Shown: piece by piece, positions 2,701-27,474 of the stretch | How the letters are laid out: each line of letters opens with the position of its first letter | Numbering within the stretch: position 1 is the stretch's first letter | IMG/VR virus record: IMGVR_UViG_3300035193_000067 | Span: 1 to 64,000 of that record | DNA from: a virus | Direction: 5' to 3' (one strand) | DNA: 64,000 nucleotides | Position numbers and translations under genes: made by a program | Notes under the pieces: model-generated | What the model was told of the DNA's origin: nothing | The model's database searches: none | Seen by the model: only the letters and a program-made list of their open reading frames with translations

Positions 2701-2702
2701 AA

Positions 2703-3236: not shown

Positions 3237-3246
3237 AGCACGCTCC

Positions 3247-9235: not shown

Positions 9236-9360
9236 GGGAGAGTTTTGATAAATGCGAGAACAAGTACCAGGAACTGGGCAAAAAGAAGACTTGTCCAAAC
9301 CTTGGTCAACGGGCTGTGCCTGTGAAATACTACAATCTTGTTGGCTAGAGATTTCATCAT
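9232..9360 (-). CDS. 42-aa single-TM protein
   Basis: Not in track. MMKSLANK...VWTSLLFAQFLVLVLAFIKTLP; ATGA overlap with upstream stop; AAGGA RBS. Confidence 0.55.
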   Translation of the reverse strand: MMKSLANKIVVFHRHSPLTKVWTSLLFAQFLVLVLAFIKTLP

Positions 9361-9557
9361 AATATTCCTTTTTTGCGCAGATCTGCCAAAACCTGTTGAA
9401 CAAGCTCACGAGACTCAAACTTTTCATTGGCTGCTACAAGTATGTCAAGATCCTCCAATCCTGCATCAATCATTTTAAGAATGAACGATTTTACCACAGG
9501 ATAGGATTCTCGGGAAGTCTGGGCAGATCTGGTTGAGGCGGACATGGTTCTTACCAT
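9357..9557 (-). CDS. Small putative virion protein with ASTRSAQ leader
   Basis: Linker motif shared with ASRRSAQ in 9551..10453. Confidence 0.65.
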   Translation of the reverse strand: MVRTMSASTRSAQTSRESYPVVKSFILKMIDAGLEDLDILVAANEKFESRELVQQVLADLRKKGIL

Positions 9558-10453
9558 GCTTCCAGGAAATCCTGGGCAACTTCCTGCCAGTTTACCTCAG
9601 AAACAGCACCTCTCATAAGGTCTGCATAAACACCATCAAGTTCAGGAGCCATCTCATCAAACATAGACTCAATGTACTGTCCCAGAGCATAAGCATCTTC
9701 TGATTCTGCAGCAGCTTCCTGTACCATATCATACAAGCCTTGATCATTACTGATCCACAAAGCTACCGCCCATGTGGAATAATTCGACCAACCCTGGTAC
9801 TCTTGAGCAGATCTGCGGGAGGCAACCAGACCATAAGCTTGAGCGTAATCGCTCGAAGAATACCCGGCTTCTTCCAGAGCTGACAGTACTTCAGGATTAC
9901 CTGAATCAATTGCCAACCGCATTGCCTCCGCGTCATCAACGGTAGGATCTGCCCCTTGAGAAAGCAGAGAAGCCACCTGTGCAGCATCTCCTGAGTCTAC
10001 AGCCTGTTTAAGCTCGTCATCCAAACCCCACTGATCATAACTGCCCTGATCCCAACCTTCCATCTGTGCCAGCTTGGTAGGTGCACCCTGTGCAGATCTG
10101 CGGGAGGCTCTCATACCTTTACTCTCCCAGAAAGGAGCATACGCAAAAGGAACATCCAACCACCTACCGGATCCATCATCTGCATTGAAGGGCTCATAGC
10201 TATCCCCAAACTCTTCAATTATAGCACGTGCTTCAGGACTGTCTTTTACATACAAATCACTCTCATGATTATCTGTCTCAATACCTGCTTCCTGTAAAGC
10301 CTGATACAGAGAAGATCCACCCTCTTCCTGAGCCTTCTTAGCATAAGGAGAATCTTCCCCATACTGAGCATACCCTTCCCCGGCTTCTGTTGCAATGCGC
10401 TGAATAGCATCAGCTCCCAGCGGTTTACGTTTGTTCAATTGTCTGTAATCCAT
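9551..10453 (-). CDS. Modular acidic protein (DNHESDLY module + ankyrin-like module + YQGWSNY module), putative head-internal polyprotein
   Basis: Three acidic modules each preceded by KKAQ / RRSAQ..KLAQ / RRSAQ. Confidence 0.75.
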   Translation of the reverse strand: MDYRQLNKRKPLGADAIQRIATEAGEGYAQYGEDSPYAKKAQEEGGSSLYQALQEAGIETDNHESDLYVKDSPEARAIIEEFGDSYEPFNADDGSGRWLDVPFAYAPFWESKGMRASRRSAQGAPTKLAQMEGWDQGSYDQWGLDDELKQAVDSGDAAQVASLLSQGADPTVDDAEAMRLAIDSGNPEVLSALEEAGYSSSDYAQAYGLVASRRSAQEYQGWSNYSTWAVALWISNDQGLYDMVQEAAAESEDAYALGQYIESMFDEMAPELDGVYADLMRGAVSEVNWQEVAQDFLEAW

Positions 10454-10465
10454 TTTTAAAACCTC

Positions 10466-10909
10466 TTAAAATTTTGTTGAGGGCTTGTTGTATACCCTGT
10501 TAAACACATTTACACTACTCTGCAGTGATCTGTCAAGCAAACCATCCAGCAAATCGATAATTTCTTCCTGAGAAAGTTTATTCAGATCTCCGTATTCCTC
10601 TCTCAGCTGCTGTACAAGCTCCGGAGGTGCATACTGAAGAATCTCACTCTCCAGGACATCCACCAGTCCTTCACCGGTCTCCAGATTGATTTCAGCAGAT
10701 ATTTTCAACTTCTCCTCCATCTGCTCCAACCCGTCATAGTAATCTGAGAACTCCTCCAGATGATCTGTTGCAATCTCCAAAGCAGTCTCAACATCATCAG
10801 TATGCTCAAACTCCACCAGAATACCCTTCAACAGCTGCTTCTGATCATACTTTGACAGATCCTTACCATCCGCCTTGCCGCCTGGTATTTTATCCGTCAA
10901 GACAGGCAT
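10466..10909 (-). CDS. DUF5661-like protein
   Basis: QL.KGI.VE.EHT.D...A.EIA.DHL.E..DYY..L..ME. Confidence 0.75.
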   Translation of the reverse strand: MPVLTDKIPGGKADGKDLSKYDQKQLLKGILVEFEHTDDVETALEIATDHLEEFSDYYDGLEQMEEKLKISAEINLETGEGLVDVLESEILQYAPPELVQQLREEYGDLNKLSQEEIIDLLDGLLDRSLQSSVNVFNRVYNKPSTKF

Positions 10910-11208
10910 TACTGCACTTCCTCCTGTGTCTGTGTATCTATAGTGTACTGATTGAGTTCCTGGTTGGGTACTGCTGTAGTACCCTCAGGAACCTCTTCTC
11001 CGGCTGGAGCAAGGACTACGTTGGGATCAGTAGGTTCATTTTCAACAACCTGCATCTGATTTCCCATCTGATCTGTGACAATCTGCCCAGGCTGCACCAT
11101 GTTTGGATCTGTTACAGTCTGCTGCTGGGCTAAAAAGGTCCTGCATACATCATCTGCAACAGTTCTTTTATAGGTGTATTTTTTGTTTTTTGACGCCGTT
11201 AATTGCAT
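10909..11208 (-). CDS. Hypothetical putative virion protein
   Basis: Start MQLTASK with AGGAG RBS; basic N-terminus then acidic domain after FLAQ. Confidence 0.7.
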   Translation of the reverse strand: MQLTASKNKKYTYKRTVADDVCRTFLAQQQTVTDPNMVQPGQIVTDQMGNQMQVVENEPTDPNVVLAPAGEEVPEGTTAVPNQELNQYTIDTQTQEEVQ

Positions 11209-11236
11209 TTTATCTCCTAAAAAAGACAATGTTTTT

Positions 11237-11260
11237 ATACTACCACAAATCAATGCGAAA
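11237..11260 (-). promoter_or_regulatory. Putative phage late promoter TTTCG-N13-TAGTAT
   Basis: TTTCG CATTGATTTGTGG TAGTAT; same spacing as 22841 and 24555. Confidence 0.65.
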
Positions 11261-11279
11261 CACTTAATAAATAAGCTGT

Positions 11280-11519
11280 TTAGTCATTTTCTCTGAAATA
11301 TGACTCGAAATCCAGCTGCTCAGTCTTCCCGCAGCCTTGACAGATCTTTGACAGCTCCACTCCAAAGGCTATACATTTCCAGGTAGCCTCTGCCCAGAAG
11401 TGTCCGCCAACGCTGATACAGTACTCCTGCAGCTCTCTCCAGGAGATCTTGTTAAAGTCTGCGGTAGCCTTGTGGATAAGATCACGCCGTGCCTGATCTA
11501 TCTCAAATTTCTTACGCAA
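11280..11519 (-). CDS. Hypothetical small Cys/His protein
   Basis: C...GGH.W...C..CG. Confidence 0.6.
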   Translation of the reverse strand: MRKKFEIDQARRDLIHKATADFNKISWRELQEYCISVGGHFWAEATWKCIAFGVELSKICQGCGKTEQLDFESYFREND

Positions 11520-11570
11520 AACCTTTCGGATCCCCTCATGAGACAGTTAAAAACCCTTCCTGAAACAGGA

Positions 11571-12071
11571 TTACTCTTCAGAGACTTCTTCAGTTTCTGC
11601 ATCAGTGCTGCCAAAACCTCCAGTACGTACTTCCGAGACTTCATCATCCTCCACCAAACCATACTGAAGAAAGATTCCCTGCATAAATGCTTTACCGCAT
11701 TCCAACTCCAGGAACTTGCTTTCATTCGTATCGTTGGTAACCTTTGCCCAGATATGCCCCTCATTGTCTGCGTAGAAATAATCAGAATCTATAACACCAA
11801 CTGTGTTATCAAGTTGAATACGGTACTTAAAGCCAAGACTTGAACGAGGAAAAAGCAGCAATACCCATCCCGGATCCATCTCAACCCGTATACCTGTAGG
11901 AATCTTTACAGACTGATTAGGCCCTACAGAGATGGAATAGGGCATGAAGAAGTCATAACCAGCACTTCCGGCAGTAGCTCTTTTTGGCAGTTTGAGGTCT
12001 CTGTACGATCCATGGAACTTTTCTAAATCCTCCAACCACCGCTCTTCACTAACCTTATGAAACTTTAACAT
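11571..12071 (-). CDS. dut: dUTPase (trimeric)
   Basis: LPKRATAGSAGYD, PRSS.G, GVIDSDY, QGIF, RTGGFGST. Confidence 0.95.
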   Translation of the reverse strand: MLKFHKVSEERWLEDLEKFHGSYRDLKLPKRATAGSAGYDFFMPYSISVGPNQSVKIPTGIRVEMDPGWVLLLFPRSSLGFKYRIQLDNTVGVIDSDYFYADNEGHIWAKVTNDTNESKFLELECGKAFMQGIFLQYGLVEDDEVSEVRTGGFGSTDAETEEVSEE

Positions 12072-12082
12072 TTTTAACCTTT

Positions 12083-12565
12083 CTATGAAACTTTTACAGC
12101 ATACTGATTTTTTGATGCAAGACGCACACCCAGAACCTCATCAAACACTGATTCAGTATCTGGAATATATCTCCCGAATTTAATAACCACGTTTGGAAAA
12201 TCTGTCAAGAGCTTTAGCATCGCATCTACCTCAGATTCTGTATACCCTGTATAAATTACAAAATCATCAGAAACTCCCTGAGATCTGAAGTAACTCAACA
12301 GATCCAGAACTTCCCAGAACTGATCAAACGGCTCCAGCCCACCAACTACAACAGCCTGTGTCAACGGGTTGGACAGGTACCTCTCCAGAACCTCTTCCTT
12401 TGGGATCTTTACAGTCTTCAAACGTGCCTGAAGAGAGTTCTGACAGATCTCGACAGGGAATCCTCCTTCTTTGCAGCACTTCCAGGTACAACCAATTGAG
12501 ACAAGCAGCATGGATGTCTTTTTGTAATCCTGGAAGACTTCATCAACTATCTGCTTAACTCTCAT
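12083..12565 (-). CDS. nrdG: Anaerobic RNR activating enzyme (radical SAM)
   Basis: CTWKC...CQN, GGLEPF, IYTGY, KFGRY, LASKNQ; adjacent to nrdD. Confidence 0.85.
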   Translation of the reverse strand: MRVKQIVDEVFQDYKKTSMLLVSIGCTWKCCKEGGFPVEICQNSLQARLKTVKIPKEEVLERYLSNPLTQAVVVGGLEPFDQFWEVLDLLSYFRSQGVSDDFVIYTGYTESEVDAMLKLLTDFPNVVIKFGRYIPDTESVFDEVLGVRLASKNQYAVKVS

Positions 12566-14481
12566 TTAAAGAAGTCCTCTTTTATGGAGTACCACTGTCT
12601 CTTGTCAAATTCAATCTTGCGCTCTTTCGAGTACGATGATTGAGGTACAAGAAAGCCTACAACCCGTGAGTAAGTGTCTACCTTTGGCTTACCGCATTCC
12701 GGACAGATCTCCCCGAAGAATCCGTGAGATGCTTCGCAGACTGAAATCCTGGTATTGTATGCATGATAGATAACACCTGAAGCAGCAACATGATTGAGCA
12801 TCTCCCAGGCCTGATCAGTATCTGCAAAAGGTCCGTCAATATTAATGTGAGAGATCTGCCCGCCTCCACACTTCCTGTCAAGAATTGATCCTAAACGGAT
12901 CTTTTCAGCAATTGTACATTTCTCCATCAGAGGTATCCACTGGTTTGAATAGATGAAATGTTGATTGTGTTGAGGATATAACCAGTTGTCTTTGCTGCAC
13001 AGAACCACGTTAGCCCTTTCAGCAGGAACCGCTTCAACATTCAGTGAATAATCAAAAGTGTAGGAGTCCTTTACCTGGTTGATTGTGTCAAGAATCCTTG
13101 AAGCAAACTCAAGACCTTTTTCAGAATAAGACTTGTTGCCAAACAGATCTGTGTCAATGTACCCAAAATGATCAACCGCTTCAAACATTGCAGTAATACC
13201 GATAGTGTTGTACTGCTTACTCAACTCTATCAACCCGTGAGTATAATTTGGAAGAAGACCCTTTTCAATATTTCTTCTGATGATATTTCGCACAACATCC
13301 AAAACCGTAATGCAGATGTCCAAACGATCTTTCAGTATACTGATGAAGGCTTCCTCAGATCTGGATTCCAGTGCAATTCTCCTGAGGTTGATTGTATTGA
13401 CCTTTACGCTTCCAATTGACAGAGAAGTACCGCCGATAGAGTTAATGAATGCATCCAGTTTCGTGAGATCTGTAGTAAGTCTGCAGCAGGAACTTAAGCT
13501 GGTGACAGATTCTCCTACATAGAAATTGGAATCGTACCAAAGAGTATTGTGATCACTGCACCATCTCGCAAACTCTTCATCCACAAACTTACCATCCTGA
13601 TAGAGCAATGAAAAAGTCAGTACAGGGAACGTAAACATGTGTTTTCTGCGGACTTCTGCAACAACCTCCATAAAAGCTTTCTGATGCTCAATGATACCTT
13701 CTATGTGGTCTATTACGTACTCACCGTTTGGAAACTTCCTGCCTCCAAACAGCTCTGTCAGATACTCCCTGTCCATAATTGTGATATTCGTAAAGGCGCA
13801 TTCAGTTACTCTCAAATATTCCTGATTCAGATCGTAAAGAGTCTTCTGGAAACACTGTCTGCGATAGTATTCAGGATCTTTCAGATAGAATCCTTCAGAC
13901 ACGTCCTTGTGCCAGAAATAGTAAGAGTATAGCAGGTAACTGGGAAGACCCACAGCTCCGGCAGTTCTGTTTGCAGTCCAGCTGACAAACTCCAGCACAT
14001 GATCGCTGAAAGTTGTTAGGTGTTGAGGAGGATCTGTCTTCATATTGTTCATAAAGAACAGTCCTTTCTCAACAACCTGATCAAGATCATACGCGTAACA
14101 GTATGAAATCATTGAAGAATTTGAGCTATCGTGAATATATAAAGACCCGTTCCATTCCTCTTCCAGCCACTGCTCAGCCTTCTTCAAACTGTAAAGTTTT
14201 GATATTTCGTAAAAAATCTTGTTGAAAGAAAGCAGTTTTGTGTGAGGCTTCACCATATCTGAAAGAAGGGTTCTAATGTCGTGCGTACTGCTGTTTGCAT
14301 TTGCATCAATGGTAGTGTCTGCCACTGTATCAGCATCAATAAAATTATCTATGAAATCTGTAAAGTTTAAGTTCTCTGTATGGAAGCCATTCATTCTCTC
14401 GAAGTCTTCCCCGTATTTCTCCTTCATTCTGTTGAGAGCTGTCACAAAAGGCTTGTATAATTTTAAAGACTTAATGTCCAT
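12562..14481 (-). CDS. nrdD: Class III anaerobic ribonucleoside-triphosphate reductase, no ATP-cone
   Basis: TFPV, SSCCRL, TINL, PAE, GG.I.H, CPECG, glycyl-radical SRVVGFL. Confidence 0.95.
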   Translation of the reverse strand: MDIKSLKLYKPFVTALNRMKEKYGEDFERMNGFHTENLNFTDFIDNFIDADTVADTTIDANANSSTHDIRTLLSDMVKPHTKLLSFNKIFYEISKLYSLKKAEQWLEEEWNGSLYIHDSSNSSMISYCYAYDLDQVVEKGLFFMNNMKTDPPQHLTTFSDHVLEFVSWTANRTAGAVGLPSYLLYSYYFWHKDVSEGFYLKDPEYYRRQCFQKTLYDLNQEYLRVTECAFTNITIMDREYLTELFGGRKFPNGEYVIDHIEGIIEHQKAFMEVVAEVRRKHMFTFPVLTFSLLYQDGKFVDEEFARWCSDHNTLWYDSNFYVGESVTSLSSCCRLTTDLTKLDAFINSIGGTSLSIGSVKVNTINLRRIALESRSEEAFISILKDRLDICITVLDVVRNIIRRNIEKGLLPNYTHGLIELSKQYNTIGITAMFEAVDHFGYIDTDLFGNKSYSEKGLEFASRILDTINQVKDSYTFDYSLNVEAVPAERANVVLCSKDNWLYPQHNQHFIYSNQWIPLMEKCTIAEKIRLGSILDRKCGGGQISHINIDGPFADTDQAWEMLNHVAASGVIYHAYNTRISVCEASHGFFGEICPECGKPKVDTYSRVVGFLVPQSSYSKERKIEFDKRQWYSIKEDFFK

Positions 14482-14693
14482 TATTTACCCCCGTTGGCAG
14501 CAACCCAGGCAACCGCATCTCTGAATAGTAATCTCTCTCCTTTTACGTTCAGCACCGGTACTGATTTTACTCCTATCGATATTAAATAATCCTTGTCGGT
14601 AACTTCTGTGTAGGACACTTCAGCAGCATCCAGCTTCTCCTGCAGAACTTTGCATTTTGGACATCCTGTATGGTACAGCACTATTTCAGACAT
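14481..14693 (-). CDS. Glutaredoxin/NrdH-like redoxin
   Basis: GCPKC and SVPVL (cis-Pro) motifs; start MSEIVLY. Confidence 0.85.
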   Translation of the reverse strand: MSEIVLYHTGCPKCKVLQEKLDAAEVSYTEVTDKDYLISIGVKSVPVLNVKGERLLFRDAVAWVAANGGK

Positions 14694-14730
14694 TAAAAAA
14701 ACCTTTCTATTGAGCAAACGCTACCACAGA

Positions 14731-14769
14731 CTTAAACAGACCTGCCGCATACTGACAGATCTGTTTAAG
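14731..14769 (-). other. 16-bp RNA hairpin between the virion block and the nrd cassette
   Basis: CTTAAACAGATCTGTC-AGTATGC-GGCAGGTCTGTTTAAG, fully paired on the minus strand using two G-U pairs; no U tract. Confidence 0.65.
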
Positions 14770-14795
14770 CAAAATTAACAGTATCTATTTAAATA

Positions 14796-15998
14796 TTATT
14801 TTGACTTTGTCAAGCTCTTCCCAGGAACCTTGGTAAGAGTCATCTTCCCTTTATCATCCTTCAGGTTCACAAGATAAACAAGATTAGCCTTGTCATACAG
14901 ATCATCAACAACCCCTTTGGTACCCTTAGGGAATTTCTTTGAAGTACCCCAGCCTCTGACAATAACTTCCTTGGTTAAAGACACTTTGTCACCATTGTTC
15001 CAGGACTTTCCTTCAGGATACTCGACCTCTGCAGGGTCAAGACCTTCGGTATACTCACCCAGTTCCTCCACACGCTCCTCCACAGGCACGTAATCATCCT
15101 TCTCATCCTCTTTGGTAGTTTTTGAAGCTGTCAGTACGTCTGCCATAGGAACGAGCTCAGAACCCAAACTGATGCCTGACATCATCTCTGCAACATCAAC
15201 AGCCATTCCAGGAAACGCTTCCATCCCTTCCGTAGGAATTTTGGCATCCACAACAGCCTGAAGAGATTCAAGAGAAAGTGCTTTCATTTGTCCTTTAATC
15301 TCAGACAGGGAGTCCCAGACATCTCCGGCAGACTCTTCATGAACATTGATAGCTTCACAGATGTCAAGATACTCAGAAATGAGACGAACCGCTTCAGGTT
15401 CCTGGGCAGATCCTTCAAACTTGTCCAAATATGCTGCAATGTCTTCAGCTTCATAAATATTGGAAGACTTGCTGAAAGCCTGGATAACAATTATCTGAGG
15501 AGCTACCGGAGAGTTTTTCATTCTTTCGAGATTGAGTTTTTTCAGCTTGTACTCCATCTCATCCTTCTGCTTATACAGATCCTTCAGCTCAGATCCTGAA
15601 AAACCTTCATATTCTGTATCAAGATAGCTGTTTAGAAGGTTGTATGCCTGTTCTTCGTAAGGGGTACCTTTAAGACTCAGGAACCACTCCTCTCCGAAAC
15701 AATCCAAATATGATTTCTTTTTCATCTTTTTCCTTTTAGCCTGAGCACCCATTCCAAGAGTACCCCGCTCAGCTTCGTACAGGTCTATGGCAGCCTGTGC
15801 CACATCTTCAAGTATCTGCTCTTCTGTTTCGTCAGGATCTGCAGACGAGTTTGGAATTTCTCTTTTAAATACAGGAGCCCCACCTTCCTCCAGAATAACT
15901 GAATAGTACTCAGGGTTCTCTTCCGAAGGTTTAACGGTTACGTTGTACCCTTTCAGAAGCAGTTGGTAGTCTGTATCGTATGTGTATGAGCCTGCCAT
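14796..15998 (-). CDS. Acidic putative virion protein with internal duplicated helical module
   Basis: WFLSLKGTPYEEQAYNLLNSYLD vs YLDKFEGSAQEPEAVRLISEYLD; basic linkers between acidic blocks. Confidence 0.7.
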   Translation of the reverse strand: MAGSYTYDTDYQLLLKGYNVTVKPSEENPEYYSVILEEGGAPVFKREIPNSSADPDETEEQILEDVAQAAIDLYEAERGTLGMGAQAKRKKMKKKSYLDCFGEEWFLSLKGTPYEEQAYNLLNSYLDTEYEGFSGSELKDLYKQKDEMEYKLKKLNLERMKNSPVAPQIIVIQAFSKSSNIYEAEDIAAYLDKFEGSAQEPEAVRLISEYLDICEAINVHEESAGDVWDSLSEIKGQMKALSLESLQAVVDAKIPTEGMEAFPGMAVDVAEMMSGISLGSELVPMADVLTASKTTKEDEKDDYVPVEERVEELGEYTEGLDPAEVEYPEGKSWNNGDKVSLTKEVIVRGWGTSKKFPKGTKGVVDDLYDKANLVYLVNLKDDKGKMTLTKVPGKSLTKSK

Positions 15999-17494
15999 TA
16001 CTTGTACATTTTCTTGAACGTGCTGGGGAGAGGGTCTACCGCATCAACTTCAACACGATATTCCATCCCTTTTGATTTGACGATGAGATAATCATTGGCA
16101 TCATCAATCTCCACAATTACTCCACGAGTCCGGTTTTTAGGCTCACCAAAACGAACACCATCCTCAAGCTCTATAGGAGTCTTTGTATCTCGGTAGAAAC
16201 GGGAAGGTTTGACAGGTTCTTCAGAAACCTCCATTTCAATTTCCTTCTCCATCTGCTGAGCTCTTTTAAACCTGTCCAGCTCCTGAAGAGAAGATGCCTT
16301 ACGTGTTCTCAGGTTCTGTCCATAGGGATTCAGGCAGAAACCTTCATTAATCAAGTGAGGCATCCAGGCATCCTGAGAAGCCGTATTAACAACATTCAGG
16401 ACGTAATTTCTCAGGATATGGATCCAGGGACGAGGGAAAGTATCTGTACCATCCTTTTCAGCCTTCTCAAGCAGCTCTTTTACAGCTGCATAAGCAGAAG
16501 GAGCAGTTCTGGCTGCTCGCTTACCTCTTACAGGATACTGACGCTCATACAAATCTTCGTAATCAGTGGTATCCAGCTGATCCTTGGTAAGAACCACCTG
16601 AGTCTCCATTACAAGAGGCTCCTGACCCATTTCAACATCCATCAGTTCTGCAACAACCTCTGAAGGAGTGGAAGTCAGCTTTATCTCAGTGGATTCATCC
16701 GATGTGGTTACGATTACTTCATCCGTATCGAGAACATCAACATCACCTAGAGTAAAGCCATAGCCCTGAGCAAAGTCCTGGAGATTTTCCTTGATTGCAT
16801 CAATGTTCTCAGGAATGTTAATGGGATTCTCATCATCAGCACTCCAAAACTCTGCAAGCTTGACATTTTCAGGATCCTTGCTTTGATTCTTACGGCTCAT
16901 GTAATTTTTGAAATTGCTGGTGTTAGGTCTCCAGCCTGTATCATTGCGCACTTCAGTAGCAAGAGCCCGTTCATCAGATCTTAGAGGAAGCTCATATCCT
17001 TCTCGTACAGAAGGAAGTACATAGGATGTTGCATTCTCCAGCATACCTTCCACGGCATGAGCAGAGATTACTGAAACTGTGTTATCCACTTCCATAACGG
17101 AAGGAGGTGTCACTTCCCCATCAATAACTGTAACAGGAACTGTAGCAACCCTTTTAACGTTTGTAGCAGTGCGGAAGGTTACTGAAAAGTCCAGAGTGCT
17201 TGAATCAATCTGTCCCTGAGAAGCATACCTGGTGTCTCTGTTGTTCAGGAATCGTACTTCAGGCATTGTAGGCAGATCAAAGGCTGCAAAAGCATCCTGC
17301 ACTGCATAAGTGGCATCTGCCACAACACTGCGAAGATCTCTGGATTTCTTTTTACCGTAGGACTTACCCATCTCTGAAAAGATATCAGTCAGCTCATCGG
17401 CTTCTTCCCAGTTTTCCTCTTCCCAGGAGGAATACCCTGCCAGAAGAGGATGAGAAGCTACTCGCTTATCTTTAATTAGTTTATCAAATTTCAT
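15998..17494 (-). CDS. Modular putative virion protein
   Basis: Acidic blocks separated by KRVAS, KRAARTA, RKASS, KRAQ. Confidence 0.7.
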   Translation of the reverse strand: MKFDKLIKDKRVASHPLLAGYSSWEEENWEEADELTDIFSEMGKSYGKKKSRDLRSVVADATYAVQDAFAAFDLPTMPEVRFLNNRDTRYASQGQIDSSTLDFSVTFRTATNVKRVATVPVTVIDGEVTPPSVMEVDNTVSVISAHAVEGMLENATSYVLPSVREGYELPLRSDERALATEVRNDTGWRPNTSNFKNYMSRKNQSKDPENVKLAEFWSADDENPINIPENIDAIKENLQDFAQGYGFTLGDVDVLDTDEVIVTTSDESTEIKLTSTPSEVVAELMDVEMGQEPLVMETQVVLTKDQLDTTDYEDLYERQYPVRGKRAARTAPSAYAAVKELLEKAEKDGTDTFPRPWIHILRNYVLNVVNTASQDAWMPHLINEGFCLNPYGQNLRTRKASSLQELDRFKRAQQMEKEIEMEVSEEPVKPSRFYRDTKTPIELEDGVRFGEPKNRTRGVIVEIDDANDYLIVKSKGMEYRVEVDAVDPLPSTFKKMYK

Positions 17495-17499
17495 AATAT

Positions 17500-17847
17500 T
17501 TACCTATCCCGTCGAATAGACCGCCCAACACTCTTAGGAGGAGCTTGAGCAGGTTTAGTGTTGCCGTTAAATACGGATGCTACCAGTACTCCCTTACGAT
17601 CTTCAATCAATAACGGATCTTTGGATAGAGCATCAATCGCTACAATTTTGCTGGAGTCCACTACAGCAGATTTTACTTTGTTCTGATGATCGGTAAACAA
17701 CCAGAAAGAAGGAAACCCTGTTTTTACGAAATCAAAAGCTGCCACATCATCCTTCTCAGGAAGTAAAGCTTTAAAGACATGACCACCTTCACAGAAAACT
17801 CGATATGTGTACAGAGGAACATTGATGAACTGTTTAACAGTACTCAT
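17500..17847 (-). CDS. Hypothetical protein
   Basis: ORF in operon. Confidence 0.7.
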   Translation of the reverse strand: MSTVKQFINVPLYTYRVFCEGGHVFKALLPEKDDVAAFDFVKTGFPSFWLFTDHQNKVKSAVVDSSKIVAIDALSKDPLLIEDRKGVLVASVFNGNTKPAQAPPKSVGRSIRRDR

Positions 17848-18470
17848 AGCAGCTCATAATCCACTTCTGAAGTAATGGAAGGACAGTAGCCCTTGCCTGC
17901 GGCAGTTTGGAAGTACTCTTCTTCCTCTACTGGTTTCTGTTTTGCAAAATCTGCAATATCCTTGGCAGTCAATCCAATAAAAGCAATTGTATCTCCTACC
18001 TGTACATCATTGACCTGACAAAAACCTCCCTGAACCTCCACCACTGCATCACAGGATGAACAGGACCATTTATCAGAACTGCCCGGCTTCGTATCCGCCT
18101 GAATCTTAACAACCTCATCATTCCTGATGAATAGAATGTCAAGCGGATAAGAAACGCTTCCTTGATGAAATGTTACATCAGCGCTGGGGGCATACGGAAA
18201 ATACATCCCTCTGTTTGCAGGAAGCTCCGGCGTATTCTGAAGACCTGCCATTTTTTCCGAGTGAGTATAAGCCACTTCACAAGCAATTTTAACATCCTTG
18301 TCAACCCACCAGCATACCATACGCTCAATAGGCTTCATTCTAGCTTGTTTATTTCTCATACGTGATGTCAATTTAATCTCATCTTCTGTATACGCATAAA
18401 AGGACAGGGAGTTGTCTGAGCCCTTCCACGCATAAATTTCATTACCATCTCCCTGAAGACGACACAGCAT
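17844..18470 (-). CDS. DUF192-domain protein
   Basis: EVA.T..EK..GL.....LP...GM.F........F......PLDILFI....V..I.....VVEV.GG......VGD. Confidence 0.8.
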   Translation of the reverse strand: MLCRLQGDGNEIYAWKGSDNSLSFYAYTEDEIKLTSRMRNKQARMKPIERMVCWWVDKDVKIACEVAYTHSEKMAGLQNTPELPANRGMYFPYAPSADVTFHQGSVSYPLDILFIRNDEVVKIQADTKPGSSDKWSCSSCDAVVEVQGGFCQVNDVQVGDTIAFIGLTAKDIADFAKQKPVEEEEYFQTAAGKGYCPSITSEVDYELL

Positions 18471-19139
18471 CTACCTTTTGCCGTATTTCTTCTTGGATTT
18501 TTTAGGAGACTTTGTAACAGCTTTCTTTTTCGGTGTTACTTTCTTTTCAGTAGTATCTTCCAGATCTGCAAAAATCTCAGACTCATCAATAACGTCCTCG
18601 GAGCTTACTGCATCAGGGTGTTCAACAGACTCTTCTTCAATAATGGCAGGAGCAGCCTCCTCCAGAGCAGTCTTGATTCCTGAAATAGCATCCAGGAGAT
18701 CTGCATCAGCTTCTTCAGAATCCTTGGTGGATACTTCAACAGTAACTTCTACAGGTGCTTCCACTGGCTCTACAGATGCTTCCACGGGTACAACTTCCTC
18801 TTTAACCTCTTCAGGTACATCTACAGGAACTGAAGTGCCAGGTGCGCCGATCTTGAACCTTTCAGTGTTAGCTTCATTGACAACTATCAGTTTGTTGGTC
18901 TTCAGAGCTGCCTGAACCTCAGGACTTAACTGAACGTCCATAGCAGTGTAGCCAGTCTCTTTGACAAGATCAACAGCATGTACAGCAGGAACAGTTACGC
19001 TGGCAGTCTTCCCTTTGAGAGATCTGCGTCTGTGGTGAGATGACTGTTCAAGTATTGGCAAGATTTTAGTCATCTCTTTAACAATAAGCGAAAGATTCTT
19101 TTTACCTGGATTAAATACTACAAATGCTTCCTTTTTCAT
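18471..19139 (-). CDS. Hypothetical protein, acidic middle and Lys-rich tail
   Basis: AGGAGG RBS; composition. Confidence 0.75.
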   Translation of the reverse strand: MKKEAFVVFNPGKKNLSLIVKEMTKILPILEQSSHHRRRSLKGKTASVTVPAVHAVDLVKETGYTAMDVQLSPEVQAALKTNKLIVVNEANTERFKIGAPGTSVPVDVPEEVKEEVVPVEASVEPVEAPVEVTVEVSTKDSEEADADLLDAISGIKTALEEAAPAIIEEESVEHPDAVSSEDVIDESEIFADLEDTTEKKVTPKKKAVTKSPKKSKKKYGKR

Positions 19140-19153
19140 AAAATACCTCCTGT

Positions 19154-21550
19154 TTATGATTTAAAAAGATCAGCCAAATTATCTTTTCCCAGAAACTTTT
19201 TCAGCTCTTCAGGAGGCATACCAACCTCAGATAGAACTCGCTGAGAAAGCATCAACGCTTTGCTCATAGCAATCTCTGTCTCATTGGATGCGGGAACATC
19301 CGCGCTTTCCACGTCTTTATATATCTTAAGAACCTGTCCTTCCTGCGAATTAGGATCTACTAGAGGATCTGCAGCAGGTGCCGCAGGAGCTGCCGGAGCA
19401 GCAGGAGCTTCCGCAGGTGCTTCAGCAGGAGCTTCCGCAGGAGCTGCCGGAGCAACTTCTTCCTGTGCAGACTTCAACAGTTTCTGAAAAGCTTTACGCT
19501 TCTTCTGAGCTTCAGCAGCCTCACGCAGAACTCTGGCAGCTGTTGGAGCAGGCTGTGCAGGAGCTGCCGGAGCCGCCGGGGCAGCAGGCGCTTGAGGTGC
19601 CGCAGGTGCTGCGGGAGCCTTTGGAGCAGGTGTTACAGGTGCGGGTTTAGCATTTCCTGCAGGAGCTGTACCAGGTTTCTGCAACTGAATCTGTATAATT
19701 TTCTGTTTCTGATCAGGCTGCATCCCCATAATGTCTTCCGCAGTCCACCCAAGAGTCTTCAAACCTTCATCACCAGCACCTGCCGCAGGGGTTGGTGCAG
19801 GAGCTGCCGGAGCTGCAGGAGCCTTTGGAGCAGGTGTCTTCTTGTCACCACCAGCAGGGGCTGCAGGAGCTGCAGGAGCAGGTGTCTGAGGTGCAGCAGG
19901 AGCTGCCTGAGCTTTAATAGGATTCTTGGGCAGTTTCTGCTGACCATGAGTTTCAGGAGTTGTTTGAATCTCCGGTTCATAAACCTTGGCAGAATCTCCT
20001 TCACCTTTATTACCACGATCCTCATCTTTGTTCGAATCATCTTTATCAGGAGCTGAAACATCTACTCCCATGTCATCCGTCAGATCTTCACCGTACCACC
20101 CAAAATAACCTGCCCAATAATCCTGGGCAAACTCATCAGCAGCTGTTTTAGTGGCTGTTATGCCATAAGTCTGAGCAACTTCACTCCAGTTTACAGAATC
20201 CAAAGAATTTTCCGCAAGGTCTGCGTAAAAACCTTCCAATTCAGGAGCACCTTCACTCACAGCAGCAACTACCGCATTCTGTATACTCAACTCAATACTC
20301 TGAGACCCATCAGATTCAACAGCACTCTGGACACGCTGTCTTAGATCATCATCATGCATAACCCATGCAGCTACTATTTTAGTAGAATCATTAGACAAAC
20401 TATCATATACCTGCGCTGTTTTAGCCTGTACTTCACCCATCTCCTCAGACGTAGCATCTCCAGGCATTCTTGGGGCAAGTTTTGACCAATCATAGTCATC
20501 TTCCGTACCCATCGATCTCACCAGGTGATACAGCTCTTCTGCAGATTCTGCTTCAAGATCCCGCATATACTGACCGGAATCTCCCCAATTCTCTTTGATC
20601 TTTACTGAAGTTTTACCCTGTTGCTTGTTGTAGGTGTCCCAGGCAAGTGCATAAGGATTGTCAACATCAGGATCCTTTTTCAGTTTCTTAACCAGTTCTT
20701 CCATTCCAGGAGGTGCTACAGATGCCTTGTCACAAACTGTATCACTTTTGGAATCCATCATCTCTGCTACACGATCCAGCATCCATGATTCAGGATCTGT
20801 GATATTGACCAGATATTTGTTATCCGGTACAGCAGCCACTCTCTGGTCATAAGACATACCTCTGCGAGGAGCCGCAAAAGTGTCTACAATTAAGGAAGAA
20901 CGTTTGGCAGTTAAAGGAGACTCATCTTCTTCGTCTTCTTCGTCTTCTTCATAAGGATCTGTATCTTCCTCATCCTCCACACCTTCAAAATCTTCCACCA
21001 GCTCATACATGTCCTCAAGGTGCTCCTCCATCTCTTCAATGAAGTCTTCCTCATACTCGTCATCCATGTCTTCCTGAGCAAACCTGCTGTAAGCCTTCAT
21101 CTCTCGGGAATCACTGTCTCTCCCCAGATCTGTATCAGTAAACCCACCACGCTCCACTGAAGTCTGTGGATTCTTATTGACTGCAGGACTCTTGAAGACA
21201 ATACTGCCGGTATCTGCTCCAGTTCCTTTTTCAACAGAAACCTGATCAGCTTTGGGACCCTTGTCAACCTTGGGAGACTTGAAAGCCTCGTCAGTGCTTG
21301 TGTCAGGCCCCAGAACGCCTTTAGGAGGTGCTGGGTAGGTAACAGGCTTGGGAGTCTTCTCCGGGATTCCAGCAGCCTTGCAGAAGTCTTTTACAGAACT
21401 CTCGAAATGGAAAAATGAAGATTTCCTGGAGGCTCCGGAAGGATCGGTCAAAACAACCTGGTCATCAGCATTGACCGAAATTGACCATTTGTTGTGAGAG
21501 ACTTTGTTGCCTTTAAGCAAATCACTTTTTACTGTATTATATGTTTTCAT
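19154..21550 (-). CDS. Large modular head-internal/scaffold-like protein with Pro/Ala-rich and acidic tracts
   Basis: Modules bounded by RFAQ, KTAQ, KTAA, IKAQ, KSAQ; contains a degenerate copy of the VNWxEVAQ module and a DYW.GYFG.YG module. Confidence 0.75.
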   Translation of the reverse strand: MKTYNTVKSDLLKGNKVSHNKWSISVNADDQVVLTDPSGASRKSSFFHFESSVKDFCKAAGIPEKTPKPVTYPAPPKGVLGPDTSTDEAFKSPKVDKGPKADQVSVEKGTGADTGSIVFKSPAVNKNPQTSVERGGFTDTDLGRDSDSREMKAYSRFAQEDMDDEYEEDFIEEMEEHLEDMYELVEDFEGVEDEEDTDPYEEDEEDEEDESPLTAKRSSLIVDTFAAPRRGMSYDQRVAAVPDNKYLVNITDPESWMLDRVAEMMDSKSDTVCDKASVAPPGMEELVKKLKKDPDVDNPYALAWDTYNKQQGKTSVKIKENWGDSGQYMRDLEAESAEELYHLVRSMGTEDDYDWSKLAPRMPGDATSEEMGEVQAKTAQVYDSLSNDSTKIVAAWVMHDDDLRQRVQSAVESDGSQSIELSIQNAVVAAVSEGAPELEGFYADLAENSLDSVNWSEVAQTYGITATKTAADEFAQDYWAGYFGWYGEDLTDDMGVDVSAPDKDDSNKDEDRGNKGEGDSAKVYEPEIQTTPETHGQQKLPKNPIKAQAAPAAPQTPAPAAPAAPAGGDKKTPAPKAPAAPAAPAPTPAAGAGDEGLKTLGWTAEDIMGMQPDQKQKIIQIQLQKPGTAPAGNAKPAPVTPAPKAPAAPAAPQAPAAPAAPAAPAQPAPTAARVLREAAEAQKKRKAFQKLLKSAQEEVAPAAPAEAPAEAPAEAPAAPAAPAAPAADPLVDPNSQEGQVLKIYKDVESADVPASNETEIAMSKALMLSQRVLSEVGMPPEELKKFLGKDNLADLFKS

Positions 21551-21561
21551 TACTGTATCCT

Positions 21562-22806
21562 TTAAAGATATTCTGCTCGTTCTATGTAATCTTCTACACC
21601 AAACTCTTTGATAGCCTCTACTGCCTGCATAATAACTTCCAAAGGCTGATCTTCTATTGAATCATACTCTCCAAAACCACTTGCATCGTAGATAGACCCA
21701 TCAACTTCATCAATCTTACTCTGAACCTCTTCCAAGCTCATGTCCGATAGGTCTAACCAGAAGCTGGAAACATCTCCTTCAGGGGTTTTATGTGCTATCT
21801 CTATACTAGGAGGACCTTCTTCAGCTCCATCCTCATCATCCCAGTCCGCATCCCATCCTTGAGCTTTCTTGTCAGACGATCCAGTTTTACCATAAACTTC
21901 TTCAAAACCAGCCATTGAGTAACCGTACTCTTCAAACAAAGACACAAACTTATCAAAAGGATAGGGATAGCTACCCTGAGAAGCGTCTTGCATCTTAAAC
22001 ATCGTCATAAAAGCTTCTGCACCATTTGCTGAAGGATCTGCACCCCTATCCAGATAACGTTTTGCAGCGCCAAGATCCATATCCTTAACCGCATCAACAA
22101 GAGCCCAGTCAAGATCATCCTGAGTAGACTCTTCTTCAGGAGAATCCCATTCTGCGTACTGCTCAGGATCCCAACCTTCCATCTGTGCACGCTTGTTTAC
22201 CATCTCAATAATAAAGTCACGAGCTTTCTTGTTTTGAGGATTGTTCACCGACAGACCATTAACACGCATCATGTAGTCAAAATCATCCTGATCATGAATG
22301 GAAGCAGCAATTCCCATCAGTTTGGTCATATCCAGCTTCACGTACCCATTGGCTGCAGAATTCTCCAGGCAGTCAACTGCTGCAGATTTGGGGAATCTTG
22401 CACTATAATGATCACGAATCTCTGCAAAGGTTGCATAATCCACAGAACCTGTCCGATTCTTCTCCCACAGTTTCTTCACATGAGCATACAGAGCTTTCAG
22501 CCCCACATCCCGCTTATCCGCTGTCATAGCCTGTTTCACAGCATTATGCAGATCAAAGGTGGATACTACCGGAAGATCTCCATCAATCTCAGAAGCCTCC
22601 TCCTCAACCCGCTCAGCCAGCTTCTCCCGCAACATGGACAGTTTGTCCATTGTGTTGTCAGGCTCATAATAAGATCTCATACGAGCCTCATCACGTTCTT
22701 CAGCAGCTTTGATGTCAGAAGCATAATGCTGAGACAATTTCCCAAAATCCAAAAGGTCGAAAGACTCTCCTGAATATTCCTTTAGTTTACTTAAAACAGA
22801 TTTCAT
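21562..22806 (-). CDS. Modular protein: N-terminal domain + ankyrin-like module + ArdA-like acidic module
   Basis: KRAQ-MEGWD...GADP module shared with 9551..10453; KKAQ then acidic C-terminal domain. Confidence 0.75.
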   Translation of the reverse strand: MKSVLSKLKEYSGESFDLLDFGKLSQHYASDIKAAEERDEARMRSYYEPDNTMDKLSMLREKLAERVEEEASEIDGDLPVVSTFDLHNAVKQAMTADKRDVGLKALYAHVKKLWEKNRTGSVDYATFAEIRDHYSARFPKSAAVDCLENSAANGYVKLDMTKLMGIAASIHDQDDFDYMMRVNGLSVNNPQNKKARDFIIEMVNKRAQMEGWDPEQYAEWDSPEEESTQDDLDWALVDAVKDMDLGAAKRYLDRGADPSANGAEAFMTMFKMQDASQGSYPYPFDKFVSLFEEYGYSMAGFEEVYGKTGSSDKKAQGWDADWDDEDGAEEGPPSIEIAHKTPEGDVSSFWLDLSDMSLEEVQSKIDEVDGSIYDASGFGEYDSIEDQPLEVIMQAVEAIKEFGVEDYIERAEYL

Positions 22807-22840
22807 TTATTATCTCCGTAAAATTAAAAAATCCTGTACA

Positions 22841-22864
22841 ATTCTAGCACAATCACTGACGAAA
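22841..22864 (-). promoter_or_regulatory. Putative phage late promoter TTTCG-N13-TAGAAT
   Basis: TTTCG TCAGTGATTGTGC TAGAAT. Confidence 0.65.
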
Positions 22865-22866
22865 AA

Positions 22867-23112
22867 CTAAGAAGCCTTCAACAAATCAACAAGACTGGAT
22901 TGCTGTCCACAGGAACTGCACACAACTTGAAGAGGTGCAGTCCCTGGAACAATACTGACTGATTTCTGACAGCACCTTGAAAGCAACTCACCACAATCCT
23001 CTGTCTCGCAGGGATCATTGTTTTGAGATCTTTTCATGAGATCTGTCAAAACATGGTCAAGCTGTTCAAGTTCTTCCGGGAAATCAGTCATCTCTTTAGC
23101 AGACCTTATCAA
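22867..23112 (-). CDS. Small zinc-binding protein
   Basis: SRCC...CSSC. Confidence 0.65.
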   Translation of the reverse strand: MIRSAKEMTDFPEELEQLDHVLTDLMKRSQNNDPCETEDCGELLSRCCQKSVSIVPGTAPLQVVCSSCGQQSSLVDLLKAS

Positions 23113-23157
23113 GCTTAATCAGGTTGAACAGATCTTTTTCATTAAAAGTTTTCATTG

Positions 23158-24210
23158 TTACTCCGTGAGGAAATCCTGGGCAACTTCCTGCCAATTTACC
23201 GCAGAGATAGACTCTTCATTGATAGCATCAGAGAAGGCTTCCAATACCCCGAAGTTGTCTTCTGACAAAGACTTTATATACTCAGCAAGACTCTGCACAT
23301 CTCCTTCAGCTGCAACACCCTGTACCTGCTTGTAAATCTCATACTCATTGTTGATCCACAAAGCTACTGCCCATGTAGCATAATTTGTCCAGCCCTGATA
23401 TTCCTGAGTTTCCCAATCCTCTTGAGCTTTTTTAGACTGTGCTTTCTTACGGTCCTTAACATCCTTGGTCATATCTGCCCCGTAACCAGTATCTGAATAA
23501 TAAGCCGACCAGTACTCTGCAGCAGCTTCATCTACACCCTGCTTAACCATCCACAGCTTCACCAGATCTGCCTTAACTCTCTTCTTGACTTCCTTAACCA
23601 GAGACTCCCCAAAAGGCCCATAATAAGCCTTGTAGTACTCTGCAGCAGCCTGATCAATAGCAATCTTCGGAATAGAGCTGGACAGGACCTGTCTTACTTT
23701 TTTGACAAGTGCTTTAGGTGCTGAAGAGGTCTTACCTTCTTTAACTGTATCAACAATCTCCTTCAAAACAGCTGTCCCAACCTTTTCCCAGTCTTCAACC
23801 AGATCTGCCGCCATTACAAAAGGAATGTTCAGTTCTTTGGAAGCCAAACGAGCTTTCATACCAAACTCAACGCTTTCCTTCACAGAAGCTACTTTATCCG
23901 CGCCAAAAGCCTTGCTCAGCTTTGCCCAGGACATTACCTTCGGAGCAGTCTCTCCGGCATCCTGCAGCTCTTTAGCAACTTTTGAATAATGTTTGGAAGC
24001 ATTGTGAGGCAATCGAGAGAACTGCCGCAGATCGGTCATGGAAGCTCCCCACATGCCAAGACTTGCCGCAGCCTTTGCCTGATACAGCTCCAGATCGTCA
24101 AGATCCTCTCGCTCAGCCTTGGTACGATTAACGATGACGTCTCCATCACGTGTGGCATTCGACTGCCAGAGATGATGAGACTGTTTAGTTGTTTTACGCC
24201 TTTTAACCAT
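23158..24210 (-). CDS. Modular protein with two AAAEY(W/Y).AYY modules and a C-terminal YQGWTNY module
   Basis: KKAQSKKAQ precedes a module homologous to the end of 9551..10453. Confidence 0.75.
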   Translation of the reverse strand: MVKRRKTTKQSHHLWQSNATRDGDVIVNRTKAEREDLDDLELYQAKAAASLGMWGASMTDLRQFSRLPHNASKHYSKVAKELQDAGETAPKVMSWAKLSKAFGADKVASVKESVEFGMKARLASKELNIPFVMAADLVEDWEKVGTAVLKEIVDTVKEGKTSSAPKALVKKVRQVLSSSIPKIAIDQAAAEYYKAYYGPFGESLVKEVKKRVKADLVKLWMVKQGVDEAAAEYWSAYYSDTGYGADMTKDVKDRKKAQSKKAQEDWETQEYQGWTNYATWAVALWINNEYEIYKQVQGVAAEGDVQSLAEYIKSLSEDNFGVLEAFSDAINEESISAVNWQEVAQDFLTE

Positions 24211-26406: not shown

Positions 26407-26909
26407 TAGTCCTCCTGAAAATAATCCTTTGTCGGATCATACGGCCGTATTATAAACTCTGATCTCTCCTCATCATCCCACTTCTCATCCCCTTTTACTA
26501 TTTTTTCCTCCATCTGAAAACGTACAAGTTTGTCATCCATCAAAGTCTTGTCCAGAACATCATATACCTGTTTACCATTTTCATCCTTCACAAGTCTGTT
26601 ATTCTCCTTCCGTTTAACCTTCCTTCCTTGCATGGCATCCAGAAGCACTGCAGGAAGATTGTCCAGATCCGGCTCCCACTGCCGTCTGTGGTAGAATTTA
26701 TACCAGATCTCAACCAGGTAGTCAATAGGAGCTTCACCACCCTGCTCAAGGAACTGTTGGTGAATATCTGCACAGATCTCATCACGTCTCTTGGTAAAGT
26801 CTGAAGAATGCCCTACCGCATAATGTTTTCCTCTCTTCTGAACCTTGATATTATTCTTTTGAGAGAGCGGTCTTCCGTATACTACGAACTTGTAAACTCG
26901 ATCTTTCAT
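26406..26909 (-). CDS. rusA: RusA-like Holliday junction resolvase
   Basis: V.GRP.S..N, PDLDNL...LLDAM, DDKLV. Confidence 0.8.
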   Translation of the reverse strand: MKDRVYKFVVYGRPLSQKNNIKVQKRGKHYAVGHSSDFTKRRDEICADIHQQFLEQGGEAPIDYLVEIWYKFYHRRQWEPDLDNLPAVLLDAMQGRKVKRKENNRLVKDENGKQVYDVLDKTLMDDKLVRFQMEEKIVKGDEKWDDEERSEFIIRPYDPTKDYFQED

Positions 26910-27181
26910 TGTGGAATCTCTGAGGTACAGAGAAGACCTCTGCCGTACAAAGCTGCCCACTCCGGAGCTTTCTTTGTAGTCAGCTTTTTACCAGCAGGAT
27001 CCATAAAGATAATATCTACGCTATCATCAACTTTAGAGAACATAAAAGAAGCATTACCTTTTGTTTCTCTGCATTCTTTAAAATCCTCCCCAAAAAAATC
27101 ACACCATACCTTTAATGCATCTTCCGCACTATACGCTATTACAGTATTCCAAACATTAGACCAAACACTCAACTTTTTCAT
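26906..27181 (-). CDS. MKKLSVW family copy 3
   Basis: MKKLSVW...AYSAEDAL.VW...EW..L.GRG.LC.SE. Confidence 0.8.
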   Translation of the reverse strand: MKKLSVWSNVWNTVIAYSAEDALKVWCDFFGEDFKECRETKGNASFMFSKVDDSVDIIFMDPAGKKLTTKKAPEWAALYGRGLLCTSEIPQ

Positions 27182-27197
27182 TTTGCACAACACCTTT

Positions 27198-27458: not shown

Positions 27459-27474
27459 TTTGCACAACACCCTT

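Follow-up and report, generated by a model that had tools for sequence, protein, structure and literature searches.

A linear motif links modular, possibly capsid-loaded proteins to head-assembly proteins in a clade of uncultured phages

The window analysed here comprises the opening 64 kb of an uncultured phage genome of 163,407 bp (IMG/VR record IMGVR_UViG_3300035193_000067). It contains a conserved block of genes, spanning 9.3–26.4 kb, for large acidic carrier proteins to which small, mostly very acidic modules are joined by a short linear motif, [KR]-x-A-[S/Q]. This motif is specific to the block proteins and to head-assembly proteins, it is constrained at the peptide level, and it coincides with the borders at which modules are exchanged between carrier proteins. 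Since the capsid protein, the scaffold and the head protease share the motif with the block proteins, the latter are probably loaded into the capsid and cut by the head protease. Judging from sequence, we put the chances at about even that the block encodes polyproteins that are loaded into the capsid and that the head protease cuts with a new specificity.

A peptide motif in the block proteins

In the initial annotation of the window, several open reading frames (ORFs) of this block had been described as very acidic pieces of 60–100 amino acids (aa) joined by short basic linkers ending in K/R-x-A-Q. The linkers were recovered in our counts: ORFs 9551, 15998, 19154, 21562 and 23158 (named after their first coordinate) contain 12 [KR]xAQ sites against 1.35 expected from per-protein shuffles, none of 2000 of which reached 12, and the remaining 17.7 thousand aa of window ORFs contain 4 against 3.9 expected. 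Genome-wide there are 23 sites against 11.4 expected, with the surplus located in the focus ORFs. ORF 9357, also listed initially as a linker-bearing protein, carries TRSAQ.

The motif is a real, clade-wide signal, present together with the gene block in twelve related complete genomes. G001, a 175-kb relative with a 65% identical capsid protein, has the block in the same order and clearer motifs, with the consensus (S/A)-(S/K)-(R/K)-(R/K)-A-Q and three tandem 39-aa modules that each end in ASRKKAQ. All ten further complete genomes (158–212 kb) carry the block as well; pooled, they have 77 AQ sites against 18.5 expected and 59 AS sites against 25, with flat control motifs. A full HMMER search with ORF 23158 retrieved relatives of two kinds, short stand-alone cores (255–282 aa) that are practically free of the motif and long multi-module proteins with up to 13 [KR]xA[SQ] sites (13 in one 804-aa protein); overall, stand-alone cores measure 255–297 aa and have 0–1 AQ site. 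The long homologues of the 23158 core contain 48 [KR]xAQ sites against 8.4 expected and 83 [KR]xAS sites against 13, and the control motifs [KR]xAE, [KR]xSQ, [KR]xGQ and [DE]xAQ are flat in them. As both AQ and AS are enriched while the controls are flat, the motif reads [KR]-x-A-[S/Q], often extended to A-S-[KR]-[KR]-x-A-Q; the form first proposed was therefore correct as a clade-wide, peptide-level signal but too narrow, because Ser alternates with Gln. An unbiased scan of all 8000 gapped patterns of the type 'a.bc' in 94 block proteins gave z-scores of 12.9 for R.AQ and 11.9 for K.AQ, which only Pro/Ala repeats and a zinc-ribbon pattern outscored.

The synonymous codons used for K/R, A and Q vary among the sites, which indicates that the constraint acts on the peptide, and the motif persists in homologues of less than 35% identity whose flanks cannot be aligned. 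Three other origins of the signal were considered. Chance or composition is ruled out by the shuffles, the control motifs and the unbiased scan, a DNA-level signal or recombination site by the codon variation at the motif, and a kinase site (R-x-x-S) is unlikely, as Gln freely substitutes for Ser.

Pieces downstream of a motif have isoelectric points (pI) of 4.1–4.9, and several are 80–108 aa long, others 221–413 aa; pieces ahead of the first motif are basic (pI 8–10). The initial description of acidic 60–100 aa blocks thus holds for the C-terminal modules only. Clear N-terminal leaders ending at the motif are present in ORFs 9357 and 9551, in the G001 proteins h97260, h126341, h126780 and h86095, and in P0048 and P0059, and several small proteins of the clade carry the motif 7–28 residues from their start.

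The same motif in capsid, protease and scaffold

The capsid protein begins with a basic, variable N-terminal extension of 40–110 aa, beyond which it can be aligned with distant capsid proteins. A search for the same motif at the capsid propeptide had been suggested with the initial annotation, and the motif is there: across homologues, the extensions of the major capsid protein (MCP) contain 71 [KR]xA[SQ] sites against 15.4 expected. They occupy conserved spots in variable sequence, NP-Y/F-RK-h-A-S near residue 10 and [KR]-h-A-S-[KR]-x-[DE]-E-x-L-F, with Q variants, and the MCP of one relative begins with tandem ASRKS repeats resembling the linkers. The N-terminus of the protease likewise has two conserved sites (F-x-K-x-A-[S/Q] at residues 3–8 and W-x-[KR]-x-A near residue 22). 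Over 11–12 genomes, the protease family contains 46 sites against 7.0 expected and the scaffold family 40 against 10.5, counts that, like those of the MCP, common descent has inflated, some of the sites being no more than conserved columns. An adjacent 262-aa protein is flat, with 2 sites against 1.7 expected. Despite shared descent, the pattern still singles out the classic substrates of a head protease.

The protease, encoded at 93731–94657 of the genome (minus strand) and bearing an FSMG box with a conserved Ser, matched PHROG 18299, 'head maturation protease' (8e-28), and showed 29% tblastn identity to annotated prohead core proteases. In G010, G011 and G012 it is fused to the scaffold in proteins of 884–909 aa with 8–9 sites, S and Q mixed; in the present genome and nine other relatives the two are encoded by separate adjacent genes. 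The conserved body of the MCP starts with G-E/Q/N/H/K-x-N-A and shows no conserved Glu there, and the capsid gene of phage G lacks an N-terminal extension. Among the other head genes, the portal gene of G001 (L014, 2458–7329) encodes 1623 aa, compared with 599 aa here, and contains three long insertions of intein-like appearance (Cys after the junction, ends of the type ...HN/YNS).

Architecture of the block proteins

Pfam and PHROGs were blank for nearly all block and head proteins. All window genes are on the minus strand, and the main members of the block are the following:

9357..9557, minus strand: small ORF of 66 aa; its leader ends in TRSAQ (residues 9–13; motif at nucleotides (nt) 9519–9530) and is followed by a small helical body
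9551..10453, minus strand: four-motif polyprotein of 300 aa, with four [KR]xAQ sites, an ankyrin-like module and DUF7249
10466..10909, minus strand: stand-alone DUF5661 protein of 147 aa (Pfam match)
14796..15998, minus strand: conserved block member of 400 aa, acidic, with a C-terminus that looks SH3-like by eye and no AQ site
15998..17494, minus strand: carrier of 498 aa, with KRAQ at residue 410 (nt 16256–16267) and three [KR]xAS sites (residues 11, 89 and 398)
17844..18470, minus strand: DUF192 protein of 208 aa, a conserved block member (Pfam, 72.5 bits)
19154..21550, minus strand: largest carrier, 798 aa, with RFAQ, KTAQ and KSAQ sites and DUF7249
21562..22806, minus strand: carrier of 414 aa, with an N-domain, an ankyrin-like module and an ArdA-N-like acidic module
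23158..24210, minus strand: carrier of 350 aa, with a basic helical core, a KKAQSKKAQ linker and DUF7249
25270..26406, minus strand: trigger-factor-like protein of 378 aa, the first conserved gene of the block (Atlas features and structure)

ORF 9357–9557 starts with MVRTMSASTRSAQ. In ORF 9551, a basic leader (residues 1–42) ends in KKAQ (nt 10328–10339) and precedes the acidic module A (43–118), which is followed by RSAQ (10088–10099), KLAQ (10064–10075), the ankyrin-like module (131–213), a further RSAQ (9803–9814) and the C-terminal DUF7249 (218–300). The duplication of linker DNA reported initially for this ORF was borne out: the 17-mer GCAGATCTGCGGGAGGC occurs in exactly two copies, at 9807–9823 and 10092–10108, against 0 expected, and encodes the duplicated ASRRSA linker. 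ORF 21562 consists of a conserved N-domain (1–204), KRAQ (22183–22194), the ankyrin-like module, KKAQ (21859–21870) and the ArdA-N-like module (317–414), and ORF 23158 of a core (1–254) with a conserved GMK-x-R-x-ASK site, KKAQSKKAQ (23422–23448) and DUF7249 (264–350), its linker region being modelled with a predicted local distance difference test score (pLDDT) below 50. ORF 19154 has a basic N-terminal part, RFAQ (21074–21085), a poly-acidic stretch and KTAQ (20411–20422) followed by DUF7249, and contains in addition an A-x-x-Y-W-x-x-Y-F-G-x-Y-G element, Pro/Ala-rich spacers and KSAQ (19463–19474). In the longer form A-x-x-Y-W-x-x-Y-(Y/F)-G-x-Y-G-x-x-L-(V/T)-x-(E/D)-V-K-K-R, this element occurs in many relatives; within the 23158 family no other part is as widely conserved, and it recurs in the 19154 family, for the most part just upstream of a linker.

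Orthologues of these proteins vary widely in length. Those of ORF 15998 (475–1098 aa) have 3–4 AQ sites against about 0.4 expected, and its site at residue 410 is position-conserved in G001 (YRRSAQ). The 19154 orthologues measure 785–1737 aa; the one of G001, with 1218 aa, has extra modules each bracketed by RKAQ. The protein encoded at 14796–15998 has orthologues of 382–578 aa in eight relatives, and that of G001 starts with MVFKVMKKAQ. The product of 25270–26406, with orthologues in seven relatives, resembles trigger factor in Atlas features (0.93, 185 shared) and in structure (template modelling (TM) score of 0.66 over 333 residues), without any Pfam hit (E < 0.1), and it is possibly a dedicated chaperone. 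Between ORF 19154 and the DUF192 gene, 18471–19139 (minus strand) encodes a protein of 222 aa; its middle is rich in Glu, Val and Pro, and its C-terminal tail, KKVTPKKKAVTKSPKKSKKKYGKR, is lysine-rich and looks DNA-binding.

Modules and their exchange between carriers

Some of the modules could be assigned to known families. DUF7249 (PF23907) was detected by Pfam in ORFs 9551 (residues 216–292, 50.0 bits) and 23158 (268–342, 36.4 bits), above the cut-off of 27, and by BLASTP in ORF 19154 (377–462); in these three carriers it lies behind RSAQ, KKAQ and KTAQ, respectively. Its AlphaFold2 model is a small helical domain (pLDDT 92.6), for which a fold search returned no convincing solved relative, the best match (Z 5.3) being the N-terminal helical subdomain of MCM. 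The module that BLASTP and Pfam showed to be common to ORFs 9551 (126–222) and 21562 (204–318), behind K(L/R)AQ-MEGWD, is called ankyrin-like from a weak Pfam hit and its sequence pattern. For the C-terminal module of ORF 21562, the nearest structural neighbour in the Atlas was an ArdA cluster (TM 0.54 over 80 residues, from a low-confidence model), and neither Pfam nor PDB gave a sequence match to ArdA (PF07275). Fold searches with the helical core of ORF 23158 found no credible match, and literature searches on DUF7249 and DUF192 returned nothing useful. When 30 carriers of this genome and its relatives were compared with Pfam and PHROGs, neither a peptidase nor any other enzyme domain was recognised, although diverged ones may have escaped detection.

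Carriers do exchange modules, and the borders of these exchanges coincide with the motif. As proposed in the initial annotation, homology between different ORFs starts at or after the linkers: by BLASTP and Pfam, every module shared among the window ORFs begins within a few residues after an AQ, as in the AQMEGWD common to ORFs 9551 and 21562. The proposed swapping of modules is likewise evident, with DUF7249, the ankyrin-like and ArdA-like modules, DUF5661 and others moving between carriers. DUF7249 and the ankyrin-like module recur in different carriers; G001 encodes module A of ORF 9551 on its own, preceded by a KKAQ leader, and in G008 and G009 this module forms part of giant carriers; DUF5661, free here, is embedded in G010 in a protein of 1737 aa and in G012 in one of 1141 aa; and DUF192, also free here, is fused into motif-rich carriers of 561–1134 aa in G010, G011, G012 and G014. 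The carriers among which modules move span 203–1737 aa.

Several borders in relatives can be placed precisely. The alignment of ORF 23158 with its orthologue in G001 extends to KKAQ, beyond which the two have different modules, so that the swap point lies exactly at KKAQ. P0003, which is 72% identical to ORF 21562, exceeds 90% identity up to KRAQMEGWDPEQY, and identity drops about ten residues after KRAQ. The 21562 family is represented in four relatives by the N-domain alone (203–216 aa), which ends at the linker position of ORF 21562, and stand-alone DUF7249 proteins (about 80–100 aa) begin at the residue right after the linker. The expectation that homology borders in relatives would fall at linkers was thus correct for these swap points and stand-alone ends but not throughout, as some junctions in relatives have no motif. 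P0007, which is 86% identical to ORF 23158, has two inserted modules, one of them in the middle of the core. Both start with KKAQ-S(L/M)(N/D)LF, which resembles the bacterial beta-clamp-binding pentapeptide, QL(S/D)LF.

The clade is large, with 493 capsid homologues at E ≤ 1e-10. The block is absent from the distant relatives G002, G003 and G004; a megablast search of the region against a phage collection gave no match, and single-protein scans of viral contigs (ORFs 21562 and 9551; one alignment) found no relative.

Genomic setting

In transcription order, the head genes (terminase, portal, protease, scaffold and capsid, at 90–108 kb of the genome) come first and are followed by the tail genes, the replication module and the focus block. 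The replication module, at 28–57 kb, encodes an SbcC-like protein, a clamp loader, a family A polymerase, DnaB, SNF2 and FEN, and genes for NrdD, NrdG, dUTPase and glutaredoxin are interspersed in the block. Two sets of three tandem paralogous small genes lie on the minus strand, at 2251–3834 (27–61% identical) and 26906–27786 (47–55% identical). Rfam detected no RNA family within 8–26 kb.

Three types of promoter-like sequence were recognised in the genome. A candidate late promoter, (A/T)TCCCGA(C/A)A-N13-14-TATAAT, occurs only ahead of head and tail genes (genome positions 83695, 89032, 103934 and 109575); TTGACA-N17-TAnnnT promoters are dense across 112–163 kb; and sequences of a third type (TTTTTCG...TAGAAT) are present at 22864 and 62334. 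The TTTCG-N13-TAnnnT 'virion promoter' suggested by the initial annotation proved weak, with 15 loose matches in the genome of which few are intergenic, and it differs from the motif ahead of the head and tail genes.

Proposed processing and packaging of the block proteins

In the mechanism that we propose, the block proteins would be co-assembled into the procapsid, where the head protease would cut them at or beside the Ala of the motif, in an assemblin-like A|S manner and not at the x-x-Glu sites of T4 and phiKZ. The cut would split the basic leaders or cores from the acidic modules of 40–130 aa (DUF7249, the ankyrin-like and ArdA-N-like modules, DUF5661 and others), which would remain in the head and probably be delivered with the DNA. 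We infer in this way the cleavage, packaging and ejection of the block proteins as well as an anti-defence role.

Several observations weigh against this mechanism. The block sits downstream of the replication module, amid nucleotide-metabolism genes and not beside the head genes, and the ATCCCGACA-N-TATAAT motif found ahead of the head and tail genes is absent from it. Genome-wide, N-terminal motif sites show no enrichment (10 against 7.0 expected), and the motif-free junctions and the ancestry-inflated counts of the head proteins have to be added. The protease matched neither Pfam S77 (at E ≤ 1) nor, in a profile search, any PDB entry, so that its assignment to a family is provisional. The nearest database record is an enrichment-culture virus, no cultured relative being known, and cargo this strongly acidic is unusual in a DNA-filled head. 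Finally, the characterised prohead proteases of the T4, phiKZ and SPN3US kind all cut after Glu, at S/A/G-x-E (PMC5694885). Given this, and given that Glu or Asp follows 12 of the 28 AQ sites in G000 and G001, the site might really be of the T4/phiKZ type A-x-E, that is, A-Q-E cut after Glu, with the basic residues and Gln secondary. This is very improbable, since the wider family shows no acidic preference after Gln and [KR]xAE is not enriched; moreover, the Ser variant has no following Glu and neither has the start of the conserved MCP body a conserved one.

The genomic position of the block could also be explained if its products were intracellular multi-domain early or middle proteins akin to polyvalent proteins, whose variable architectures are known (PMC5512222), that are never packaged, any cutting taking place in the cytoplasm by a host or another phage protease and the likeness to head-protein motifs reflecting a shared protease or linker style. 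This explanation is in line with the neighbourhood of replication and nucleotide-metabolism genes, with the missing late-type promoter motif and with the presence of ArdA-like and ankyrin-like modules, as early anti-defence genes typically encode them. However, Pfam and PHROGs found no peptidase domain in any carrier, and outside the block the motif marks head-assembly proteins specifically and does not occur in replication proteins. The internal-protein genes of T4 likewise lie outside its head gene cluster. On balance, we regard an intracellular fate as unlikely. The motif might, alternatively, be a docking site and not a scissile one, bound by the trigger-factor-like chaperone, the scaffold or the portal so that long, partly unfolded proteins are retained or recruited; cutting would then be unnecessary. 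The trigger-factor-like gene at the head of the block supplies this explanation with a partner, and the motif lies in low-confidence linker regions (pLDDT < 50). Trigger factor prefers peptides that combine aromatic and basic residues, and extended motifs such as F-R-K-S-A-S and Y-K-R-I-A-Q pair the two. Yet Ala and Ser/Gln are near invariant whereas the flanks vary, a better fit to an active-site pocket than to a promiscuous chaperone groove, and many of the sites lie in the scaffold and the protease, classic protease substrates; a pure docking function seems to us rather unlikely.

A further explanation would give the motif no biochemical role at all, as a passive inherited linker spread with the modules by recombination. 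The identical 17-nt linker duplicate within ORF 9551, the AQMEGWD common to ORFs 9551 and 21562 and the identity breakpoints adjoining the linker in relatives are in line with such a spread. Nevertheless, codons differ at nearly all sites, and the motif precedes unrelated modules, is kept as an N-terminal leader on stand-alone genes, survives in the homologues below 35% identity despite their unalignable flanks, and occurs in the MCP, protease and scaffold without any shuffling there. We consider a passive linker quite improbable.

Returning to capsid loading and processing by the head protease, the observations can be combined, tentatively and with some doubt, into a 'load and release' system. 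Modules placed behind a linker or a basic leader of 10–30 aa would be loaded into the procapsid and freed by a head protease of new, assemblin-like specificity, the trigger-factor-like chaperone would keep the carriers loadable, and tandem copies would set the dose, so that the block might constitute an evolvable cassette arsenal of injected acidic proteins (DNA mimics and similar).

Comparison with known systems

Processed head-internal proteins and polyvalent proteins are already known. The block proteins have much in common with the inner-head or ejection proteins of the giant phages phiKZ, 201phi2-1 and SPN3US and with IPI–III and Alt of T4, which bear capsid-targeting propeptides and for which delivery with the DNA has been proposed (PMC5694885), as we propose here. 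In both cases, a short three-position motif is common to the capsid, the scaffold or core and the internal proteins, and there are several sites per protein and paralogous families, as well as N-terminal leaders, which are clear in individual proteins here although N-terminal sites are not enriched genome-wide. The block proteins share their motif with the capsid extension, the scaffold and the protease as internal proteins processed by a prohead protease do, with family counts that are partly non-independent. The differences concern the site, [KR]-x-A-[S/Q] without a conserved Glu and known here from sequence alone, the arrangement in chains of interchangeable small acidic modules on conserved carriers, and the position of the genes next to replication genes. 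Cleavage after Glu, a trait of the T4 and phiKZ internal proteins, finds no counterpart here, as there is no conserved Glu after the motif, [KR]xAE is flat and no invariant Glu marks the border between the MCP extension and body.

Polyvalent proteins (Iyer, Burroughs, Anand, de Souza and Aravind 2017; PMC5512222) occur in phages and conjugative elements, have ArdA among their domains, and were proposed to be co-delivered with DNA and cut into functional units. The carriers described here, of 203–1737 aa, resemble them in being multi-domain proteins with highly variable architectures. However, Pfam and PHROGs showed no embedded metallopeptidase or other enzymatic domain in the carriers, their modules are small and non-enzymatic, and the borders of the units are marked by a linear motif common to head proteins.

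The maturation sites of herpesvirus assemblin are of the form (V/L)-x-A|S. They resemble ours in the small Ala at position P1 followed by Ser and in their presence in the scaffold and protease precursors, protease and scaffold being linked as in the G010, G011 and G012 fusions. In contrast, the upstream determinant is basic here and not hydrophobic, and Gln alternates with Ser; the likeness is one of site, as searches with this protease against Pfam S77 and PDB showed no homology to assemblin or T4 gp21. The head-packaged anti-restriction proteins DarA, DarB and DdrB of P1, as cited in PMC5512222, are processed head-internal proteins protecting the incoming DNA. We found no sequence or domain relation between them and the block proteins; those of P1 are large enzymes and do not consist of small modules in a chain. 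What would be new here is the motif specificity, the cassette arrangement of motif-delimited, small, non-enzymatic modules, and its spread through a large uncultured clade.

Implications

If cleavage is confirmed, the motif would represent a new head-protease specificity predicted from sequence alone, and would provide a simple rule for recognising proteins that are probably located inside the head, and may be injected, in hundreds of genomes of uncultured phages of 160–210 kb in which Pfam and PHROGs recognise almost nothing. The block would then be a natural cassette system by which capsids can be loaded with foreign modules, similar to the capsid-targeting sequence of T4 that serves as a tool, and it would give DUF7249, DUF5661 and DUF192 a phage setting. 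Even if the idea of cleavage is wrong, no pattern in the block proteins other than low-complexity repeats and a zinc ribbon is stronger than the motif, which ties these proteins to the capsid, the scaffold and the protease, a link that calls for explanation.

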